A DNA stretch of 64,000 bases from positions 75,826,001 to 75,890,000 of the forward strand of contig OZ024747.1 of the NCBI GenBank assembly GCA_964016885.1, read 5' to 3'. Shown here in pieces: positions 1 through 64,000 of the stretch; the stretch's first letter is position 1; every line of letters starts with the position of its first letter. The position numbers were made by a program, and so were the translations under genes. Source of the stretch: Eledone cirrhosa (lineage: Eukaryota). The notes beneath the pieces were generated by a model that saw only the letters and a list, made by a program, of their open reading frames with translations, had not been told where the DNA came from and made no database searches.

Positions 1-700
1 GCCCAGCTTCTCAAGATTTGTATTGAGGCAGTTACTAACATACCCCAGTGCCCCAATAATTACAGGCATAAATCTGAAGGTGTAATCAGGGTGGAGTATC
101 TGCAGATTTCTCATCAGTTCTGCATAAATATTCTCCTTTTCGTTAATCTTTGATATTATATTGGCATCTGCTGGGCAGCTAATTTCCACTACTGTGCATG
201 CTTTCTTCTCCCTGTCCCATATCATAATATCTGGTCTGTTATGCCTGCATTTTATTGGGGATTTTACTGGAACATTCCACCAGTACTCTTTCATATTATG
301 TACATTGATGTCTTTCACATTGTTGTAGCTTTTAATGTGTTTATTATCGGGTCTATCTTTTTTACGAACTGCATTGTACAGTGTTTTGGCCACGACATCA
401 TGGCTCATAGGTAGATAGTACCGCGATGACATCTTTGGACAGCTGCTGATGAAATGGGTGATATCCTCGATGTTAGTTCTGCAGAGTCTCATATCTAGAT
501 GTTTTGTCTGCATCCCTATGTCTTTTGTGAATCAGGTATTTCGTGTTAATCACCTGTTCTTGGATTGCAAAAGCGTATCCTTCAAAGTGGGAGCCAATAC
601 AGCGGTTGTTGGTCCAAGGTAGACTACTTTCCTTATCTATATTACTCTCACTCTGGAGCTTCCTGGCAACATATCCATGCATGATTTTTTGCTGATAATA
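1..700 (-). mobile_element. 5'-truncated, frameshifted R4/Dong-like non-LTR retrotransposon fragment (zinc knuckle + RLE endonuclease); continues beyond the window start
   Basis: Minus-strand translation gives KIMHGY..SHFEGYAFAIQEQ (ORF 473-754), HFISSCPKMSSRYYLPMSHD and NRPDIMIWDREKKACTVVEISCP..PVIIGALG. These are colinear with, but clearly diverged from, the C-terminus of the 9599-13108 protein. Confidence 0.9.
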
Positions 701-1690: not shown

Positions 1691-2198
1691 ATATATGTAA
1701 GTATTTACGTATGAATGTATGTATGTATGTTTGAATGTATATATGTATGTATGTTTGTATGTATATATGTATGTATGTATGTTTGTATGTATATCTATAT
1801 ATATATGTATGTATGAATGTATATATGTATGCATGTATGTCTGTATATATGTATTTCTCCATCTTTAGTCTGTCTATTTGTTATTCCCTGCCTCTCTAAA
1901 TATATACATCATAATTTTGTAGGTGTTTAACATACAAACACAAACACATATATTAGTACATATATACATATGAATAATACGTTGTATCTAGCCACATATA
2001 TATATATATATACACCAGACCATTGTTGTTTATCATCTTTATTACCTCTGATGATGAAACAGTATTTTACGATACTTGGTTATGTAATATAAATATTCGT
2101 TAATTTATTTGCATCGAAACATATAGGAAATATTAAATTATTTAAGAAATCTATTGTATTATCCGAATCTGTTATACATACATATAAGTATGTATATG

Positions 2199-2237
<39 letters not shown>

Positions 2238-2306
2238 TATGAAGAGAGAAGAAACATTTAGATATAATTAGTAATAAAATGTATCGTACCTAAACTGCTC
2301 CTAAAT

Positions 2307-2396
2307 TCCTCGACTACGTAGTTTCGTGGCATAAACAAAAACAATATATCATAAAGATATAGAGTCCTTGCGAGGTCTGCCGACTTATCAAGAGGA
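2307..2396 (-). ncRNA. Type I hammerhead ribozyme motif (U3-A8 core variant)
   Basis: Reverse complement of the 3365-3454 motif. Confidence 0.8.
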
Positions 2397-2901
2397 TACC
2401 TCATTTTACTAGTCTCAAGAACGCGTCTACACGACGTGAGAAAGAATCCCAAAAGGCGGAGGGGGAGATAGTCACGCGATATAACGGTCGAGAAACAGAG
2501 CTAAGCCTCTTATAACCCCGAAGAAAATACCACGGAGGCGGAGGGGGTATTTATATCGAGGCCGTAGAAGAGGTGGTGAAGAAGGCGAGAAGTATGAGTA
2601 ATGGAAGCTTTCCAGCTGTCCCCACACTTCAAAGATTGCTCGACCAGAGGGAGTTATTAACAATATATTCAGAAACACACAGATACATGCGGACACACAC
2701 ATATATACATGAATGCATCCGCACCCAACTGTGAGTTAAGGGTGCCAACTTCACCGATGTTGCTCAATGAATGACTGGGACAGACCAATTCAGTTGAACT
2801 AGACTGAACCAGTATCAGAGTTAAAAATACATTATGAAGAGAGAAGAAACATTTAGATATAATTAGTAATAAAATGTATCATACCTAAACTGCTCCTAAA
2901 T

Positions 2902-2991
2902 TCCTCGACTACGTAGTTTCGTGGCATAAACAAAAACAATATATCATAAAGATATAGAGTCCTTGCGAGGTCTGCCGACTTATCAAGAGGA
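2902..2991 (-). ncRNA. Type I hammerhead ribozyme motif (U3-A8 core variant)
   Basis: Second tandem copy, 595 bp from 2307-2396. Confidence 0.8.
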
Positions 2992-3364
2992 TACCTCATT
3001 TTACTAGTCTCAAGAACGCGTCTACACGACGTGAGGGTGCGGATGCATTCATGTATATATGTGTGTGTCCGCATGTATCTGTGTGTTTCTAAATATATTG
3101 TTAATAACTCCCTCTGGTCGAGCAATCTTTGAAGTGTGGGGACAGCTGGAAAGCTTCCATTACTCATACTTCTCGCCTTCTTCACCACCTCTTCTACGGC
3201 CTCGATATAAATACCCCCTCCGCCTCCGTGGTATTTTCTTCGGGGTTATAAGAGGCTTAGCTCTGTTTCTCGACCGTTATATCGCGTGACTATCTCCCCC
3301 TCCGCCTTTTGGGATTCTTTCTCACGTCGTGTAGACGCGTTCTTGAGACTAGTAAAATGAGGTA

Positions 3365-3454
3365 TCCTCTTGATAAGTCGGCAGACCTCGCAAGGACTCT
3401 ATATCTTTATGATATATTGTTTTTGTTTATGCCACGAAACTACGTAGTCGAGGA
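3365..3454 (+). ncRNA. Type I hammerhead ribozyme motif (U3-A8 core variant)
   Basis: Stem I UCCUC/GAGGA; core UUGAUAA; stem II GU(C)GGCA...UGCCAC; GAAA; palindromic stem III ACUACGUAGU; GUC cleavage triplet at 3447-3449. Confidence 0.8.
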
Positions 3455-3695
3455 ATTTAGGAGCAGTTTAGGTATGATACATTTTATTACTAATTATATC
3501 TAAATGTTTCTTCTCTCTTCATAATGTATTTTTAACTCTGATACTGGTTCAGTCTAGTTCAACTGAATTGGTCTGTCCCAGTCATTCATTGAGCAACATC
3601 GGTGAAGTTGGCACCCTTAACTCACAGTTGGGTGCGGATGCATTCATGTATATATGTGTGTGTCCGCATGTATCTGTGTGTTTCTAAATATATTG

Positions 3696-3762
<67 letters not shown>

Positions 3763-3781
3763 CATATACATATATATATAC

Positions 3782-3823
<42 letters not shown>

Positions 3824-9598: not shown

Positions 9599-12500
9599 TC
9601 ATCCCTTGAATCGCAAGAATGTTTTGCATATTTTGAAGGTGCCAGCTATCGCAGCCATTTGTAGACTATGAATTAGGGAGCTGCGCTTTTTGTCCGCAAA
9701 TCCAAGTTCGGTCATACTTTGGTCCAAGCGGGTTGGTATATAACCCGTAGCACCAATAATGATGGGTATGAAGCTAAAGGTGTATCTTGGATACTGGATT
9801 TGTAAGCTCCTCATCAATGGTCCGTAGATGTCCTCCTTCTCCTGTATTTTTCTGACAACGTTTACATCAAGTGGGCAGCTGATCTCCACAACAGAACACG
9901 TTTTCAATGTGTGGTCCCAAACTACAATATCAGGCCGGTTGTGCTTTAATTTGGTGGCAGTTTTTATTTTCAGGTTCCACCAGTATTCCTTAGTGCCATC
10001 TGTCTCAATATATTCTTCCTCGTTTGTTGTTAATTTTGTTTTCCGAAGTGCGTTCCAGATAGTTCTAGCTATCCCATCGTGTCTCATGGGGAGGTAGTAG
10101 CGAGATGACATTCTTTCGCAGCTGGCAACAATGTGGCTTACATCCTCGATCTTTGTTTTACATAGCCTACATTTATTGTCAGCTGCTGGCCCTCCTCTTT
10201 TGTGCAGCAGATATTTGGTAGGGAGTTCTTGTTCCTGTATTGCATAGAGATATCCCTCAAGGTGTGATGTCATAAACTTGTCGGAACTCCATGCCAGGCT
10301 TTTTGAGTGGTTTATCCCCTCTATGGTCTGTGTTTTACGCCTCAAGTATCCATGCACAACTTTCTCTGTAAATTGGTCAATTTTTTTTTCTTGTTTGAAC
10401 ATTGAATAGGATCTTCCGATTTCTCTGGGTGAGAGATTTATATCAGGCTTTATTCCATATCTCTCCTCCAGATCAGTCGCTATTCTAATGATATTTCTTT
10501 TTTCGTGCTCATAAACCTGAGCAAGATGGTCGCCAACCTTTTTCCTCTGTTGAAGGTGTTGCTTCAGTGTTACTATCCGGGTCTCATATGTTGTTAATAT
10601 TGATTTTAGACCCCGGCCACCTTCCTTGCGTGAGAAGTATAGCCTATCCACATCACCATTGATGTTAAAGTTCCCAGTAACACTGAGAAGTTTACGAGTT
10701 CTAACATCCATCTCACTTAGTTCTTGCAATGACCAGTTCAGTAGGCCAAATGTTGGCGTTATAATTGGCACAGCATAGGTATTGTGGGCAATGTATTTGT
10801 TGTATGCTGACAGTTCTGATGACCATATTTTTTTTACTCTTCTGAGGTATTCAGTTCTGGTTCTCTCCTTATTTATGGGTCCATCATATCTGACATTCTC
10901 ATCCTGTCCAAGATATCTGTAGTTGTCACCTGACTGCAGAGGTTGTATTGTCAGGCCGTTCATATCTAGATTTCTAGAGGAGGGCACAGCTCTTCCACGT
11001 TTTACTGCCAAATATGCACACTTGGACTCACCAAATTTCATTTTGATGTCGGTTGAAAATTGTGTAATGAGGTCCAATTGTTTCTTGATGTCATTGATAT
11101 TTGGCCCATACAACTTCAGGTCATCAACAAAGAAAAGATGGGAGATACTTCTGGGCCCACTTCTTTGTCCACCTTGTTTCCTGAGTAGGTAAGATAGTGG
11201 ATTCAGTGAGAGAACGAAGAGTAGTACTGACAAGCTATCACCCTGAAAGATGCCCTTCTGGTAATGTATCCTATCAGTCTTAACCTGCTCCTTCTCACCT
11301 CTAAGGATCAAATTGGTGTACCAGTTCTTGGTCAGGCGTTCAACAGCAGCTACTAATGGTTGTGGGACTTTAGCTAACTGTAAAGCCTTAATAATCCACC
11401 CATGAGGTACACTATCAAATGCTTTTTGATAGTCCAGCCACACGACAGTCATGTTTCTGCGATTCTTTGTTGTTTTTTCCTGAATCATTTTGTTAGTTAG
11501 TAGGTGATCTATGCAACCCCACACCTCCCTCTTTCCACCAGCTTGCTCAGGTGTTATGATGTTGTTGGTAGCACAGTGATCCTGTAAGAACAGGTTAAGG
11601 CACCCAGTATATAATTTATACATGATGTTTTGGCAGGCAATTGGGCGGTAATTTTTAGCAAGGGTGGTTTGGCTATTTTTGGGAATGAGGAGAGTAGTGG
11701 CAGTTGATAACCATCTGGGCAGTTCTTGTGTGCCCTTAATGGTTTCTGTAAACAGCCGTATGAGATCTTGCCGATAGAAAGTGAAATTCTTCAACCAGTA
11801 TCCTGTAATGAGGTCTGGGCCTGGCGATTTCCTATTCGACATTTTCTGTAGAGCTGTTTCCAGTATTGACCCATCTATGTCATATTGTTTTGTCTGGACA
11901 TGTTGGCAGTAGTCCTGTTCCAGTTGTTTTAGCCAATTAGCTTGTCTGTTGAATCCGTCATCCGTTTCCCATACAGATCTCCAGTAGTTCTCAACCTGTT
12001 CTTTTGAAGGGGTGTCGTTTACAGGGATTGAGCTTTTGCCACCGAAGCTGCGATAAACTGATTTAGGATCTCTGGCAAACAATCTATTTAGCACTTGTCG
12101 TTTATGGGCTGTTGACTTATATTTTAGTCTTTCTGTTGTAGCTGTGAGTTGTTGTTTCAACTGGTGTAATTTGGAGTTCAAAGTTTTAAATTTGGTATCT
12201 CCAAATCGTCTCTCTAACTTTTTCTTTAGGTCTTCCTGGTGTCGTGTGAAGTTTCTCTCTATGTTGCATTTCATAACGACTGCGATGTGTGAGATACTTC
12301 GTCTCAGGGACAAAATTTTGGTTTTTAAATTTCGCATCCACGCTGGTTCAGGCTTTCTGTTTGTATCTTGATTGCGTGGTTTTAGATGTGTGTTATATGA
12401 TAGCAATGTGACAGCTGAAACATATAACAAAACATTGAGCGTTTCAAATGTCGTTTCTACACCTTTAGATCGTATAGCCTTCAGATAATTGCCAGCTATT

Positions 12501-13108
12501 TCGTTCACCGCTTCCAATTCCAATTTAGTGGGTTCTTTACTGACTCTAGTGTTGTATGGTCTGTCACTCACATTAAGGCTGTGTATCTCTTGAAACATAT
12601 CGTTCCATATCACTTGTAGGGTGCCCACAAGTTTTTGGTGCTCTGTTTGTTCAGTAGAGTCATGAATTGCAGCCTCGTTGTTGATGTGGTGACAATTACT
12701 ACTAGAGTCAGCTGACCTTTCTCGCTGTTCTTCAGTGGAAGTGGGATGGATTTCAGCAAAATTGTTGGTGAGCTGTTCACTGTTAGATTTAGCCGGCCAT
12801 TCTCTTTGTCTGTCAGTGGAGGTGGGGTGGTTGTCTACAAGGGCTGTATTTGTAGTATCACTCGATTCCGTTAGATGTATCAATTTACATCTAATGATAC
12901 GTTTTGCCTGTTCATTTAGATGCTTTGGAGAAAAGTCTAATTCTGGGTGTTTGGAGTTCCATAAAGTTTTTAGCCTTTGCATAAAACCGAACTTTTGGGG
13001 TTCAGATTGTTTGTATGCTTCATATAATTCTTTGTTAAGCTCGTAGCTCCACTGTATACAACGGTTGTAATTGCGATTTGGTCGAAGGAGACTTGTACTT
13101 TTTGCCAT
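9599..13108 (-). CDS. Reverse transcriptase + CCHC knuckle + restriction-like endonuclease polyprotein (1169 aa)
   Basis: RT motifs KSPGPD, YRPIAC, WLDYQKAFDSVPH, GIFQGDSLS, HLFFVDD, YRYLG; GGRGL; CRLC..HIVASC; RHD; RLE motif NRPDIVVWD..VVEISCP..K. Confidence 0.97.
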   Translation of the reverse strand: MAKSTSLLRPNRNYNRCIQWSYELNKELYEAYKQSEPQKFGFMQRLKTLWNSKHPELDFSPKHLNEQAKRIIRCKLIHLTESSDTTNTALVDNHPTSTDRQREWPAKSNSEQLTNNFAEIHPTSTEEQRERSADSSSNCHHINNEAAIHDSTEQTEHQKLVGTLQVIWNDMFQEIHSLNVSDRPYNTRVSKEPTKLELEAVNEIAGNYLKAIRSKGVETTFETLNVLLYVSAVTLLSYNTHLKPRNQDTNRKPEPAWMRNLKTKILSLRRSISHIAVVMKCNIERNFTRHQEDLKKKLERRFGDTKFKTLNSKLHQLKQQLTATTERLKYKSTAHKRQVLNRLFARDPKSVYRSFGGKSSIPVNDTPSKEQVENYWRSVWETDDGFNRQANWLKQLEQDYCQHVQTKQYDIDGSILETALQKMSNRKSPGPDLITGYWLKNFTFYRQDLIRLFTETIKGTQELPRWLSTATTLLIPKNSQTTLAKNYRPIACQNIMYKLYTGCLNLFLQDHCATNNIITPEQAGGKREVWGCIDHLLTNKMIQEKTTKNRRNMTVVWLDYQKAFDSVPHGWIIKALQLAKVPQPLVAAVERLTKNWYTNLILRGEKEQVKTDRIHYQKGIFQGDSLSVLLFVLSLNPLSYLLRKQGGQRSGPRSISHLFFVDDLKLYGPNINDIKKQLDLITQFSTDIKMKFGESKCAYLAVKRGRAVPSSRNLDMNGLTIQPLQSGDNYRYLGQDENVRYDGPINKERTRTEYLRRVKKIWSSELSAYNKYIAHNTYAVPIITPTFGLLNWSLQELSEMDVRTRKLLSVTGNFNINGDVDRLYFSRKEGGRGLKSILTTYETRIVTLKQHLQQRKKVGDHLAQVYEHEKRNIIRIATDLEERYGIKPDINLSPREIGRSYSMFKQEKKIDQFTEKVVHGYLRRKTQTIEGINHSKSLAWSSDKFMTSHLEGYLYAIQEQELPTKYLLHKRGGPAADNKCRLCKTKIEDVSHIVASCERMSSRYYLPMRHDGIARTIWNALRKTKLTTNEEEYIETDGTKEYWWNLKIKTATKLKHNRPDIVVWDHTLKTCSVVEISCPLDVNVVRKIQEKEDIYGPLMRSLQIQYPRYTFSFIPIIIGATGYIPTRLDQSMTELGFADKKRSSLIHSLQMAAIAGTFKICKTFLRFKG

Positions 13109-13292
13109 GATGAGTTCGTCTATTCACTAATATTTTGTATTTATTTTTTTTAAATAGTCGATGATCTTCTTTAAAAGTTACGACAAAGTTCTGTCAGAAT
13201 CAAATTTAAAGTTATTCACAGCTTGGGTAATATTTCTTTTCAGTTAGTTTTTAATTCTACAACTGTGTTTTAAACGTTGTTCTTGAATCGTT

Positions 13293-30928: not shown

Positions 30929-32317
30929 CAGTACCACAACCAGTACTCATAATAGAAAAGTACACAGTACCACAACCAGTACTCATAATAGAAAAGTACA
31001 CAGTACCACAACCAGTACTCATAATAGAAAAGTACACAGTACCACAACCAGTACTCATAATAGAAAAGTACACAGTACCACAACCAATAATCATAATAGA
31101 AAAGTACACAGTACCACAACCAGTACTCATAATAGAAAAGTACACAGTACCACAACCAGTACTCATAATGGAAAAGTACACAGTACCACAACCAATAATC
31201 ATAATAGAAAAGTACACAGTACCACAGCCAGTACTCATAATAGAAAAGTACACAGTACCACAACCAATAATCATAATAGAAAAGTACACAGTACCACAAC
31301 CAGTACTCATAATAGAAAAGTACACAGTACCACAACCAGTACTCATAATAGAAAAGTACACAGTACCACAGCCAGTACTCATAGTAGAAAAGTACACAGT
31401 ACCACAACCAATAATCATAATAGAAAAGTACACATTACCACAACCAGTACTCATAATAGAAAAGTACACAGTACCACAACCAGTACTCATAGTAGAAAAG
31501 TACACAGTACCACAACCAGTACTCAGTAGAAAAGTACACAGTACCACAACTAATAATCATAATAGAAAAGTACACAGTACCACAACCAGTACTCATAATA
31601 GAAAAGTACACAGTACCACAACCAGTACTCATAATAGAAAAGTACACAGTACCACAACCAGTACTCATAGTAGAAAAGTACACAGTACCACAGCCAGTAC
31701 TCATAATAGAAAAGTACACAGTACCACAACCAGTACTCATAGTAGAAAAGTACACAGTACCACAACCAGTACTCATAATAGAAAAGTACACAGTACCACA
31801 GCCAGTACTCATAGTAGAAAAGTACACAGTACCACAACCAGTACTCATAGTAGAAAAGTACACAGTACCACAACCAGTACTCATAATAGAAAAGTACACA
31901 GTACCACAACCAGTACTCATAATAGAAAAGTACACAGTACTACAACCAGTACTCATAATAAAAAAGTACACAGTACCACAGCCAGTACTCATAGTAGAAA
32001 AGTACACAGTACTACAGCCAATACTCATAGTAGAAAAGTACACAGTACCACAGCCAATACTCATAGTAGAAAAGTACACAGTACCACAGCCAGTACTCAT
32101 AGTAGAAAAGTACACAGTACCACAGCCAATACTCATAGTAGAAAAGTACACAGTACCACAGCCAGTACTCATAGTAGAAAAGTACACAGTACTACAGCCA
32201 ATACTCATAGTAGAAAAGTACACAGTACCACAGCCAATACTCATAGTAGAAAAGTACACAGTACCACAGCCAGTACTCATAGTAGAAAAGTACACAGTAC
32301 CACAGCCAGTACTCATA
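30929..32317. repeat. 36-bp minisatellite, ~38 copies
   Basis: Unit CAGTACCACAACCAGTACTCATAATAGAAAAGTACA, head-to-tail with no spacers. Confidence 0.97.
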
Positions 32318-32542
32318 AACCTCGATAGAAAAGAAGTAAGCCAAGTGAAAGTAAACTATAGTACAGAAGCTTATGTAGGAGAGTACTGGTTCCCGCAGCC
32401 CAAGATTAATGTCTTGGTACAAACAACTATAAGAACAGAATAATGTAGAAGGTGCAGCCAGGGCACTATGAGTGATAGACGTATTATCTCCGGCTGCCCA
32501 GCCCTTACCCAATCTGAACATATGCAGATTGGTGATCAGATA

Positions 32543-38069: not shown

Positions 38070-38101
38070 TATATACACATATATATATATATATTTATTT
38101 T

Positions 38102-38719
38102 TCAAAATTATTTTTCAAAGCTCTTGATAATCGCTTCCCTAGAACACATAGGTATCACTCAATCTTCAATAGGCATACAATTAAATTAACCTACTCATCC
38201 ACCAAAAATTTAGCACAAAATATTAATAGAATAAATAATAGGAACTTAAAACCTACTGATAATAGCATAAATAATATACAAGTTAACAAATGTAACTGTA
38301 GAGATAGATCTAAATGTCCGTTAAATAACAACTGCTTAGTTAAAAATATAGTATACAATTGTAATGTTAATACTGACTCTAATTCTTTTAACTACGTCGG
38401 TTCCACATCGACGGAATTTAAACTTCGCTATAATAACCACAAGAATTCTTTCACAGATCCAAATAAAAAATCTTCAACGGCACTATCAGGGGTACTCTGG
38501 CAACTTAAGCTAGATAACGTTAGATATTCGACGGCTTGGAATATAGTCTCAAGAGGGATTCCTTTTAATTCATCCTCTGAGACATGTGACCTCTGTGCAG
38601 AGGAGATATTCTTTATACTAAAATCTAAAAACTCCCTTAACCTACGGACAAATTTATTCAGTTGTTGCAAACATAGATTAAACTCAACGTTTAAATATAA
38701 ATTTAAATTTAAAATGTAG
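38102..38719 (+). pseudogene. Penelope-like ORF 3' end (Cys linker + GIY-YIG endonuclease), 5'-truncated; absent from the ORF track
   Basis: Uninterrupted frame [100 protein letters not shown], ending in TAG at 38717. Homologous to 63600-64000. Confidence 0.9.
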
Positions 38720-47202: not shown

Positions 47203-48000
47203 CAGTCGGTGGATTGGCAGTGTCGGTAGAGGGTCGGACGCCATGCTTTCCAGCATAGAGTTACGTCCCTTTACGATCTGAGTTCAAATCCCGCCGAGGT
47301 TGACTTTGCCTTTCATCCTTACGGGGTCGATAAAATAAAGTACCAGTAATGCACTGGGTAATTGCTGGCCTTGTGCCTAAAGTAGAAACAATTATTATTA
47401 CTTGGCAGTGTCGGTAGAGGGTCGGACGCCATGCTTTCCAGCATAGAGTTACGTCCCTTTACGATCTGAGTTCAAATCCCGCCGAGGTTGACTTTGCCTT
47501 TCATCCTTATGAGGTCGATAAAATAAAGTACCAGTAATGCACTGGGTATTTGCTGGCCTTGTGCCTAAAGTTGAAACAATTATTATTACTAATGCTCTTT
47601 ATTACCACTAATATTATTATTACTACTACTATTACGAAGAGCGGTGGATTTGCAGTGTCGGCAGAGCGTTGGAGAACGTGCTTTGCGGCATAGAGTTACG
47701 TCCTGTTACGTTACGAATTCAAATCCCGCCGTGGTTAGCTTTGCCGTTCATCATCACAAGGTCGATAAAATTAAGTAACAGTCACGCACTGGCGTCCATT
47801 TAATCGACTTTCTCCTCCCCTTCAATAGCTAAAAGTAGAAACTATTATACTTTTACGCATAGAGTTACGGCCCTTGCCATTCTGAGTTCAAATCCCGCCG
47901 AGGTTAACTTTGCCTTTCATCCTTACGGGGTCGATAAAATAAAGTACCAGTAATGTACTGGGTAATTGCTGGCCTTGTGCCAAAAGTAGAAACAATTATT
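47203..48000 (+). mobile_element. Cluster of four head-to-tail SINE family A copies
   Basis: Copies at about 47203-47400, 47402-47590, 47641-47848 (diverged, longer) and 47857-48000 (5'-truncated). Confidence 0.9.
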
Positions 48001-61120: not shown

Positions 61121-61322
61121 TAACGAAGGAAATGTGGTAAGGAACCAGGTGGACCATAACGCACCAAAGTACTCAATACTTGAGGTAGTAGAGTGGGTAA
61201 TAGGAACCAGTAAGACCCCGACAGCTGAGCTCAAGCCGTTTCGACGGCTAATTCTGGACTCAGTCCAGAATTAGCCGTCGAAACGGCTTGAGCTCAGCTG
61301 TCGGGGTCTTACTGGTTCCTAT
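61121..61322. mobile_element. pLTR-like element with perfect palindrome (61200-61322, 1-bp spacer)
   Basis: Arms read outward GTC-GAAACGGCTTGAGCTCAGCTGTC-GGGGTC; (TA)n flanks. Confidence 0.88.
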
Positions 61323-61348
61323 ATATATATATATATATATATGTATAT

Positions 61349-61565
61349 TAACAGATTAAAGTTTAAGCAAAGAATCGCTGCTTTCACCCTTAACGGGATC
61401 TTCTGAAACTCAGAAGATCCCGTTAAGGATGAAAGCAGCAATTCTTTGCTTAAACTTTAATCTGTTATTTTAATAAATATTTGCTCTACGGTTCTTATAT
61501 ATTTGATATATATTTATCCTTATCGAGCCCTCTTCGGATTTTAGTCTTCACATTTATTATTATTG

Positions 61566-61567
<2 letters not shown>
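61349..61567. mobile_element. Inverted pair of Penelope pLTR ends joined at the hammerhead core
   Basis: Arms 61349-61406 and 61410-61467, meeting at TTCTGA-AAC-TCAGAA. Confidence 0.88.
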
Positions 61568-61606
<39 letters not shown>

Positions 61607-61614
61607 TATATATT

Positions 61615-64000
61615 TATTAAAATAACAGATTAAAGTTTAAGCAAGGAATCGCTGCTTTCACCCTTAACGGGATCTTCTGAAACTAACAAAGTCAATCTGT
61701 AAACGCAGAACTGGATATTTAAAAAAACGTTGCAACCGGAGGAAGACAGGAAGACGATACTTTGGTTCGTGGAAATGTTCGCTGGCAAACAACTGGAAAA
61801 AACGAATAATACGTCATTAATAGGAGCGGTGAAAAACAATTACGCGCAAAGACAGAACCACGTTTATGGTATAAAAGAGGTCGTAGACTAATGTTCTCTT
61901 AGGTGGTTCATAGAGACGTTCTCTGGCAATGAACGAAAAAAACGAAGATAATATGTCATATGTGGAGCGTGGAGAACAATAGCACGCAAAGACAAAACCA
62001 CGTAAATGGTATAGCAGAAGTCGTAGACTAAAATTCTAACTAGGAGACCAAATGAATCTCCGCTACAGAGTTACGAACAAGTAAATAAATACAATACAGA
62101 AGTAATAGAAATAAATAAATACATACACGCAAACAAATACGTACATACACAAGCATACGGAAAACCTTACCATAGGTATACAAAACCACGCACATATAAA
62201 TATGTGTGTGTGTGTATGCGTGTATACAAATAAATAAATAATTATATAAACGTATATAAATAAATAAATACGTATATAACAAGCGCACACACATACCCAC
62301 ATATAATAACCCCCGTGGAACCCAGCATTGCTACCTTTCGAAAATGATGTCTTGGAACACATTCGGAGCATCAAATTTCGGAATAGGAGCAATTCCTTCC
62401 AGCAAGACCTGAAGAATAGAATTCGTTCTATTAAGGATTCTAACGCCGTGCACGTCCATTCCGACAAAACTGGCAACCTATATCAAGTGGAGCGCAGTAC
62501 TTACCATCAACAACTACATAATGCTGTAACTAAGGATTACCGTAAAACTAATCGGTGCGTCATCAATGAAATCAACGATGCTGGGTTTAAAATCACATCT
62601 GATCTCAACATCCTGGACCGGACCGAACCTTTGGACCCTATTTCTCCCCACTTTACCCTGAAGGATCACAAATCCATTTTTTCCGAACAACCCCTCTATT
62701 CGGCTTATTAACCCTACGAAGTCCGATTTAGGTAGACTTAGTAAAACGATTCTTGATAGAATTATACCTGAACTTAGAAATTTGGCCCCTCTTGCACTGT
62801 GGAACAATTCTTTGATTGGTTGAAAGGCATATGTAACAAGGAAAATTGCCGTTTTATCCAATTCGACATCAACAATTACTACTCCTCCATCACTTTACCA
62901 CTATCAATTTCGCTAAAACACTCACAGTGGTTAAGGATTTCGAAGTCGATGTCATCCTCAATGCCCGAAAGTCGGTGATTAATTTCGACGACTCTATTTG
63001 GATTAAAAAATCCAATAGTACCCCATTCGACGTAAGTATGGGCGCCAGTGACTCTGCGGAGGTTACTGATCTTATTGGCCTTTTCCTTCTTTTCTCTATC
63101 AAGGACGAATTCCCCAACGTGGGCGGTGGTTTGTACCGTGACGATGGTCTTTTGACCATGACTAAGTGCGGACTTCGTGCTTGCGACAGGTTCAGAAAAG
63201 AACTCACAGCCTTCTTTAAAGGCTTCAACCTCTCTATACAAGTTGAGGCCAATCTCTCGGTCGTTATTTACCTCGACATTACCCTCAATTTATTGAATGG
63301 GTTGTATTACCCGTATAGAAAGCCGAATGATACGCTTAATTACATAAGTAAAAATTCCAACCATCCTGCCAGCATAACCAAGAACCTGGTAAGAAACGTT
63401 TCGTTGAGGCTTTCCCGTCTTTCCACCAACGAGCGTATTTTCAACGACCATTCCACTTATTACAATGAAGCTCTTGATCGAAGTGGATTTAACGATAAGG
63501 TAGCTTATACTGAGTACGAATATAGACCTAGAAGAAATAGATCCCGTCGCATTTGTTGGTATAACCCACCATATAATATGGAGGTGGCCACACCATTAGC
63601 TAAGATCTTTCTTTCCCTTATTACGAAGCATTTTCCCCCTACACATAAATATAGTAAAATTTTTAATAGAAATACTATTAAAATTTCTTACTTTACGACT
63701 CCTAACCTTGCACATAACATCACAGCTTCAAATTTAGCTAAACTGCCTAGCCGTAGTAACACGTGCAACCCTGTAGTTAGTACTAACTGTAATTGTAGGA
63801 ATCGGGCTGATTGCCCCATATCCGGGAAATGCCTCTCTAGTATCATTGTCTACAAATGTAAGGTTGTAACACCCACGTCCCGTAGGGCATACATAGGGTT
63901 AACCGCCAATAGTTTCAAGCAGCGACTTTACATGCATACCCATTCTTTTCGTTACCCTCTAATAAGGAATATGACGTCACTTTCAGCTTATATCTGGAGT
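61615..64000 (+). mobile_element. Penelope-like element with inverted 5' pLTR; runs off the window
   Basis: Inverted pLTR at ~61615-62305 (hammerhead-fold 61634-61684, minus strand), followed by coding sequence on +. Confidence 0.92.
62310..64000 (+). pseudogene. Penelope-like RT + GIY-YIG polyprotein, 5'-truncated with frameshifts (~62685, ~62812, ~62900)
   Basis: SDKTGNLY, TLKDHK, RLINPTKS, FIQFDINNYYSSI, FDVSMGASDSAEV, GLYRDDGL, YLDITL, SNHP, WYNPPY, CNCRNRADCPISGKC, IVYKC..YIGLTANSFKQR. Confidence 0.93.

Follow-up and report, generated by a model that had tools for sequence, protein, structure and literature searches.

A non-coding 595-bp hammerhead repeat family of Eledone cirrhosa whose head-to-head arms end 3' at two fixed sites, very probably mobilised by a Penelope-like element

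Metazoan non-LTR retrozymes are described, in the portions of the sources available here, as non-coding tandem units of 170–400 nt with one type I hammerhead per unit, a GC content under 50% and a strongly self-paired monomer, in genomes that hold Penelope-like elements (PLEs), and a model in which they are copied from RNA circles comes from Cervera & de la Pena 2020 (PMC7229834). A later account gives a unit range of 51–972 bp, argues for an origin from PLEs, favours local amplification and reports that one of nine Xenopus retrozyme dimers was cleaved in vitro (Li, Clavereau & Pollet 2026, bioRxiv 10.64898/2026.07.22.740005). The 595-bp unit studied here lies in a 64,000-nt stretch of the Eledone cirrhosa genome (contig OZ024747.1, positions 75,826,001 to 75,890,000; hereafter the window). 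It resembles these retrozymes in its non-coding tandem organisation, with one type I hammerhead per unit and PLEs in the same genome, in its GC content (42%), in its strong self-pairing (64% of bases in the fold predicted for a circle) and in falling within the 51–972 bp range. It differs from them in exceeding 170–400 nt, in carrying a ribozyme of the PLE type instead of the canonical one, in forming dispersed short arrays at (TA)n, whose arms stand head-to-head and have their 3' ends at two fixed sites, and in having no pseudo-LTR (pLTR) homologue in the PLEs examined.

The hammerheads of PLEs have U3-A8 cores and palindromic helices III among their known features, show low activity in vitro and likely act as dimers, according to the parts of Cervera & de la Pena 2014 that we draw on (PMC4209133). 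The motif of the present unit shares with these minimal ribozymes (Schistosoma Cercyon U3-A8, D. virilis variants) the U3-A8 core, a short helix I, a long bulged helix II, the palindromic helix III and opposite-strand motifs 100–700 bp apart, and differs in sitting within a highly uniform, multi-unit non-coding family. With regard to insertion, the Poseidon protein cleaves AT-rich DNA on both strands in vitro and extends each of them, and reverse transcription starts at two internal sites whose interval forms the tail, with no strand difference in the portion of the report available; insertion did not need ribozyme cutting (Frangieh et al. 2024, PMC11167929). A tail of 30–40 nt on one of two inverted PLE ends had already been described (PMC8557442, PMC3846280). 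Like the EN+ PLE insertions (Poseidon PAc, Adineta Penelope, Naiad/Hydra/Neptune; PMC11167929, PMC3846280, PMC8557442), the present family has two internal start sites, a tail at one end, 5' truncation, microhomology joints and AT-rich/(TA)n targets, and the first start site lies ~80 nt past the cut here and ~85–92 nt past it in PAc (computed from figures of PMC11167929). Unlike those elements it has no ORF, its tail measures ~165 nt against 30–40 (PMC8557442), and its pairing of one site per arm is strict, whereas PAc shows no such difference between strands in vitro (PMC11167929). Non-autonomous Chlamys elements such as MRC1 are also comparable, being non-autonomous PLE derivatives with multicopy head-to-tail insertions (PMC8557442, as far as covered).

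Unit positions were numbered from the predicted cut GUC^G, with +1 at window position 3450. A sequence-only reading of the window had described ~1.35 and ~1.1 nearly identical copies of a non-coding unit on opposite strands, joined head-to-head, with both 3' ends merging into (TA)n, and both descriptions were confirmed; the repeat period is 595 bp and the two arms differ at two internal sites (Table 1). No sense ORF of 120 aa was found inside the unit, and no ORF inside the arrays examined. The unit likewise has no LTR/PBS/PPT organisation (PBS and PPT being assessed from tandem anatomy only), and the copies examined lack the RT and GIY-YIG ORF between pLTRs that marks an autonomous PLE. No promoter was found, and a TATA-like motif at 3206–3213 was set aside because a common allele disrupts it (24 of 71 loci).

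Table 1. Features of the 595-bp element at the window locus, in window coordinates.
Feature	Position	Strand	Remarks
(TA)n-rich tract, target, left arm 3' end	2173..2234	.	
Left arm	2232..3035	-	804 nt = 1.35 units; 5' end +467, 3' end site A (+80)
Third hammerhead motif	2307..2396	-	predicted cut 2312/2311
Complete 595-nt monomer, predicted cleavage site to predicted cleavage site	2312..2906	-	
Second hammerhead motif	2902..2991	-	predicted cut 2907/2906
Head-to-head joint	3035..3035	.	arms overlap by 1 nt
Right arm	3035..3698	+	664 nt = 1.12 units; 5' end +181, 3' end site B (+249)
Type I hammerhead motif, U3-A8 variant	3365..3454	+	predicted cut 3449/3450
Predicted hairpin +1..+71, directly 5' of site A	3450..3520	+	fold prediction
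~165-nt 'tail', site A to site B	3530..3698	+	mapped ends
(TA)n tract, target, right arm 3' end	3697..3820	.	

Between 3429 and 3520 the unit holds an ATG in helix II, a donor-like AG/GTATGA (3471/3472, +22/+23) and a TACTAAT motif, which possibly survive from the first exon and intron of a PLE; G/GTAT is retained in all three subfamilies, and the ATG is missing from the oldest. Two contigs of run X5 (run type unspecified) leave the unit just after 3471, at this AG/GT, a weak hint of splicing; the 30-nt consensus beyond 3471 (agreement 0.63, probably a mix of two) was not found in the genome. Elsewhere in the window, an uninterrupted ORF of 1,174 aa on the minus strand (9599–13123) matches RVT_1 and zf-RVT and belongs to an element that we take to be R4/Dong-like. 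The 3' end of a second copy of it occupies 1–900, and both copies end at (TATG)n tracts. A 36-bp minisatellite of 38.7 copies (30929–32318) is open in several frames, and a 188-bp tRNA-like repeat, presumably of SINE type, forms a tandem pair at 47214–47590.

The family is large and young. A 24-mer from the ribozyme has 7,444 exact copies in the 3.0-Gb genome and its reversed control none, so chance occurrence is excluded; the junctions of +80 and of ~+245 with (TA)n gave 1,858 and 1,190 exact matches genome-wide, respectively, with controls of 0 in each case. The best matches are 99–100% identical to the unit (39 of 1,213 candidates scored), and the window locus is one of thousands of young insertions. 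Arrays reach ~5 units per arm, two or more neighbouring units of a tandem each bear a type I hammerhead, and two older subfamilies, ~82% and 72–77% identical, retain the same anatomy and both 3' ends. Three motifs ~6.3 kb apart on C2, met in the search for a mobiliser, turned out to be a local duplication.

A relaxed hammerhead motif scan returned four matches in the window, three of them inside the 595-bp element, and 81 of 83 intervals between neighbouring motifs measure 585–596 bp. The claim of a well-formed type I hammerhead in each unit therefore stands as regards number, with three motifs and one per full unit, but not as regards canonical form, the core being UUGAUAA, that is U3-A8, against the C3-G8 of the canonical core. 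Helix I comprises 5 bp, the bulged helix II carries a long extension, and helix III, the palindrome CUACGUAG, is weak. Among the 150 listed of 162 Rfam matches at E<=1 there was no hammerhead family, those listed being of the microsatellite-driven miRNA type only. With neither the C3-G8 core nor a hammerhead family among the Rfam matches listed, the ribozyme is a non-canonical, Penelope-type variant. Folding of the 131-nt hammerhead region is no better than that of shuffled sequences (z -0.40). The core does not vary among 13 diverged copies, in all of which helices I and III are 100% paired, and it remains unchanged between subfamilies 20–28% apart; in the same copies, the covariation test gave no compensatory double change and did not exceed column shuffles. 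The active fold of the 90-nt motif lies 1.1 kcal/mol above the minimum. From these traits taken together, self-cleavage is plausible.

The ends of the copies were mapped at 78 loci, 38 from a DNA search, which is length-biased, and 40 from the list of +80 junctions on C1; at L076 and L088 the second copies, products of local duplication, were left out, as were arms of the old subfamily at L073 and L099. The 3' ends of 134 mapped segments fall at site A (+70..86) in 66 cases, at site B (+225..255) in 59 and elsewhere in 9, of which 7 are short or internal pieces. Per locus, the end classes were A+B at 47, A only at 17, B only at 12, A+A at one, neither at one and B+B at none. The C1 set had been picked on its A end and its informative end is the partner arm, which was B in 26/26 of the two-arm loci chosen by the A junction. 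Furthermore, at least 24 distinct divergent A-B pairs within 6 kb occur among the chromosome-1 matches listed (25 were listed, one being a cross-pair between duplicated loci), with no A-A pair among 100 A matches and no B-B pair among 100 B matches listed on that chromosome.

The 5' ends are spread out and are not significantly enriched at the cut site (8/125 in +1..+25, p 0.16). Paired arms are uncorrelated in length (rho -0.13), and in 38 of 43 A+B pairs their 5' ends are unrelated. The joints of the 47 two-arm loci overlap by 1–8 nt in 32, are blunt in 8 and contain extra bases in 7, short inverted pieces being present at some; at one-arm loci the 5' end is usually fused to (TA)n. The circular permutation of start and end points, predicted from the two arms of the window locus, was therefore not borne out when copies were mapped onto the circular unit: with 3' ends at A or B and 5' ends scattered, there are two fixed start sites and random truncation, and no free permutation. 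The two fixed ends bear the signature of the Penelope 'tail', which measures ~165 nt here, and the family combines the tail on one of two inverted ends with 5' truncation, head-to-head joints and an AT-rich/(TA)n target. In L095, an 11-nt stretch of the unit is repeated ~6 times near the joint (about 3400–3470), which suggests slippage of the reverse transcriptase.

The complete 595-nt monomer folds at z -7.95 (against 100 shuffles), with strong folding mostly in +1..+250 (z -7.2, 60 shuffles). The hairpin predicted at +1..+71, and another at +174..+237 that lies inside the tail directly 5' of site B, were both predicted in 5/5 aligned monomers; according to the model, the former would tie up the 3' strand of helix I of the hammerhead. 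By eye, a similar motif, UAUCU-nnn-UGUUUCU, ends both hairpins (3497–3511 and 3671–3685) and is a candidate protein-binding signal.

We compared 321 segments from the 78 loci for variants shared within insertions. Divergence is 0.39% within an arm and 0.44% across the arms of one locus, compared with 1.78% between loci. Locus-private alleles in at least 2 copies number 34; of these, 29 are carried by all copies that cover the site and the other 5 by part of them (L038, L039, L041, L052 and L107; in-register across the arms in L041 and common to adjacent units in L052 and L107). Rare alleles at sites with at least 3 copies comprise 84 singletons, 16 in all copies and 6 partial, and subfamily-diagnostic sites are uniform in 1,533 of 1,552 cases. 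A haplotype of L095 defined by two alleles was found 8 times in the 3.0 Gb of the genome, always in L095 (5 in one arm, 3 in the other), and a loop deletion occurs twice genome-wide, both within one tandem with a normal A end. The simplest reading of these patterns would be that all units of one insertion were copied from a single monomer. Since the units share private variants, a single monomeric and likely circular template is favoured, and since the cleavage-site junction is free of indels in 167/167 cases, a covalent circle is favoured over template jumping; on this evidence we consider a circular monomer template probable. The five partly shared alleles are unexplained by a single monomer and fit a long homogeneous parent or local conversion better. 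As for the claim that inserts longer than one unit arise by reverse transcription around a circle, the variants supply sequence evidence for a monomeric template, but length alone cannot separate a circle from a linear multimer. In one of four contig sets (run type again unspecified), a single contig of 620 nt loops back by 592 nt, as a tandem array or a circle would give equally.

The Penelope elements of the window, named in the sequence-only reading as candidate mobiliser, bear no sequence similarity to the unit. In 177 stretches, a few of which overlap, no unit was found as the terminal repeat of an ORF and no arm continues upstream into a PLE ORF; PLE-like matches occur in 39 of them. No autonomous PLE with a pLTR related in sequence to the unit was seen among the window PLEs, six other stretches and these 177, and a search for an autonomous partner among older subfamilies, lone or variant ribozyme matches and short-loop variants returned only non-coding copies. 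The broader view of a non-coding, tandem, hammerhead-bearing, Penelope-mobilised, retrozyme-like family is nevertheless supported, its ends arguing for the mobilisation: the family is a new member of the non-LTR retrozymes and non-autonomous Penelope-like elements, and it is very probably PLE-mobilised as well as non-coding. In L033 and L066, the arm's 3' side is joined close to a mid-ORF position without a TA tract. At L066 (2848–5577) a Neptune-like arm is linked through 45 nt of the unit and 2-nt microhomology, head-to-head, to a B arm of 2.07 units; the Neptune-like arm lacks its own tail, and its pairing with a B arm fits the A/B rule. Because the Neptune-like copy (94% identical to the nearest of 39 other scored candidates) and the unit arm (99.4% to its relatives) differ in age, the join is at least as likely to come from a deletion reaching an older neighbour as from a true chimera.

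One-sided tails also occur in the coding PLEs of this genome, at ~45–55 nt in the Neptune-like family and ~110 nt in the Hydra-like element of the window. These clade names are presumptive and were assigned by visual comparison with motifs given in PMC8557442. The Hydra-like element (61620–64000, and L169 1–1320) is frameshifted near its start and has an inverted 5' repeat without and a 3' repeat with the tail. A 5'-truncated Hydra-like fragment with the GIY-YIG end follows a (TA)n tract at 38099–38719. Short palindromic insertions between (TA)n tracts at 61121–61321 and 61335–61570 have one-sided extensions of ~105–110 nt, so that these families too have the one-sided tail anatomy. A Neptune-like PLE that is nearly complete, has direct terminal repeats and contains an asparagine-rich insert (L097 1908–6501) lies within the same TA tract as a unit insertion. 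A second hammerhead family, with a CUGACGA core, long helix II and palindromic helix III, was noted in L039 (2330–2910), L042, L111, L141 and L241; its tandem in L039 has a ~481-bp period and a TA end ~76 nt past the predicted cut.

On balance, the sequences favour a young insertion in which paired arms with two fixed ends were likely put in place by a Penelope-like enzyme, with a circular RNA monomer as the likely template. An array with at least 2 ribozymes would be transcribed, and by analogy its hammerheads would cut, probably as dimers or helped by protein, after which the 595-nt monomer would be ligated to a circle that the +1..+71 hairpin would protect from re-cutting. A Penelope-like RT/GIY-YIG protein may then open a (TA)n tract on both strands, with priming at +80 from one of the DNA ends and at +245 from its partner; a long hairpin is predicted immediately 5' of either site. 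Each cDNA would extend around the putative circle over a random distance that reaches up to ~5 units, and both would be joined 5'-to-5' through microhomology.

The most serious competitor, to which we give a minor though appreciable probability, dispenses with the circle: the same non-autonomous PLE would be copied from linear multimeric RNA that stays uncut and is transcribed from a small number of long, homogeneous source arrays, with the ribozyme as a passenger. The dominant in vitro substrate of the Poseidon protein was indeed unprocessed RNA (PMC11167929, in the portion available), and the private alleles partly shared at five loci, with L041 in-register across arms, point the same way; the lack of 5'-end enrichment at the cut also agrees with it, but is equally expected for a circle. 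Against it, the assembly has no source array for the L095 haplotype, no arm-to-arm register is clearly closer (0.34–0.55% at well-sampled offsets), arrays cannot lengthen by linear copying, yet many variants fill whole arrays, and the ribozyme core is invariant over such distant subfamilies. An unlikely extension of the circular template is that the 595-nt circle varies, and perhaps replicates like a viroid, while still RNA, before a dimeric Penelope enzyme rolls round it from the two fixed sites; fully fixed haplotypes would then lack a DNA parent in the assembly, having arisen in the RNA pool. Growth in place, in which short inserts are amplified and homogenised like a satellite by unequal exchange and gene conversion (proposed in bioRxiv 10.64898/2026.07.22.740005), is more doubtful still. 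Gene conversion is possible between inverted and between tandem repeats, both of which are present, and adjacent units share private alleles in L052 and L107; however, rare alleles in all copies outnumber partial ones while singletons persist, arms of several units still have intact A/B ends and random 5' ends, and variant sharing reaches across inverted arms.

Two further readings are, in our view, highly improbable. The arms could be truncated pseudo-LTRs of a coding PLE whose full-length copies were missed, given that the 177 stretches sample only part of several thousand loci, that ends and ribozyme are typical of pLTRs, and that the helix II ATG and donor-like site recall a PLE 5' end. 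Yet arms run from unit to unit for up to ~5 periods with no coding insert, 0/177 stretches lead upstream into a PLE ORF, the near contacts in L033 and L066 lie on the arm's 3' side, and the oldest subfamily is devoid of the ATG. Equally remote is the formation of head-to-head pairs from one linear RNA, by fold-back/antisense self-priming (PMC3846280) or L1-type twin priming. It would account for the short inverted pieces at joints and for the 5/43 A+B pairs whose 5' ends coincide within 15 nt (expected 2.2, p 0.07), but is at odds with the unrelated 5' ends of the others and the uncorrelated arm lengths, and an arm stops near the other's start site in just 3/43 and 1/43 cases. The A/B rule and the locus-wide sharing of variants favour double-ended priming on a monomeric template over both self-priming and satellite-like growth.

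The present family bears on how PLEs come to insert in tandem and inverted form, on what role the hammerhead has, and on whether retrozymes are copied from circles. It offers thousands of near-identical young insertions that obey two rules open to measurement: each arm has one priming site, and private variants are shared throughout a locus. Neither rule was found stated in the open-access literature searched. A defined RNA region of 250 nt with two start sites can be tested in vitro, and the strict A/B rule together with the haplotype evidence makes the mechanism of PLEs and retrozymes directly testable.
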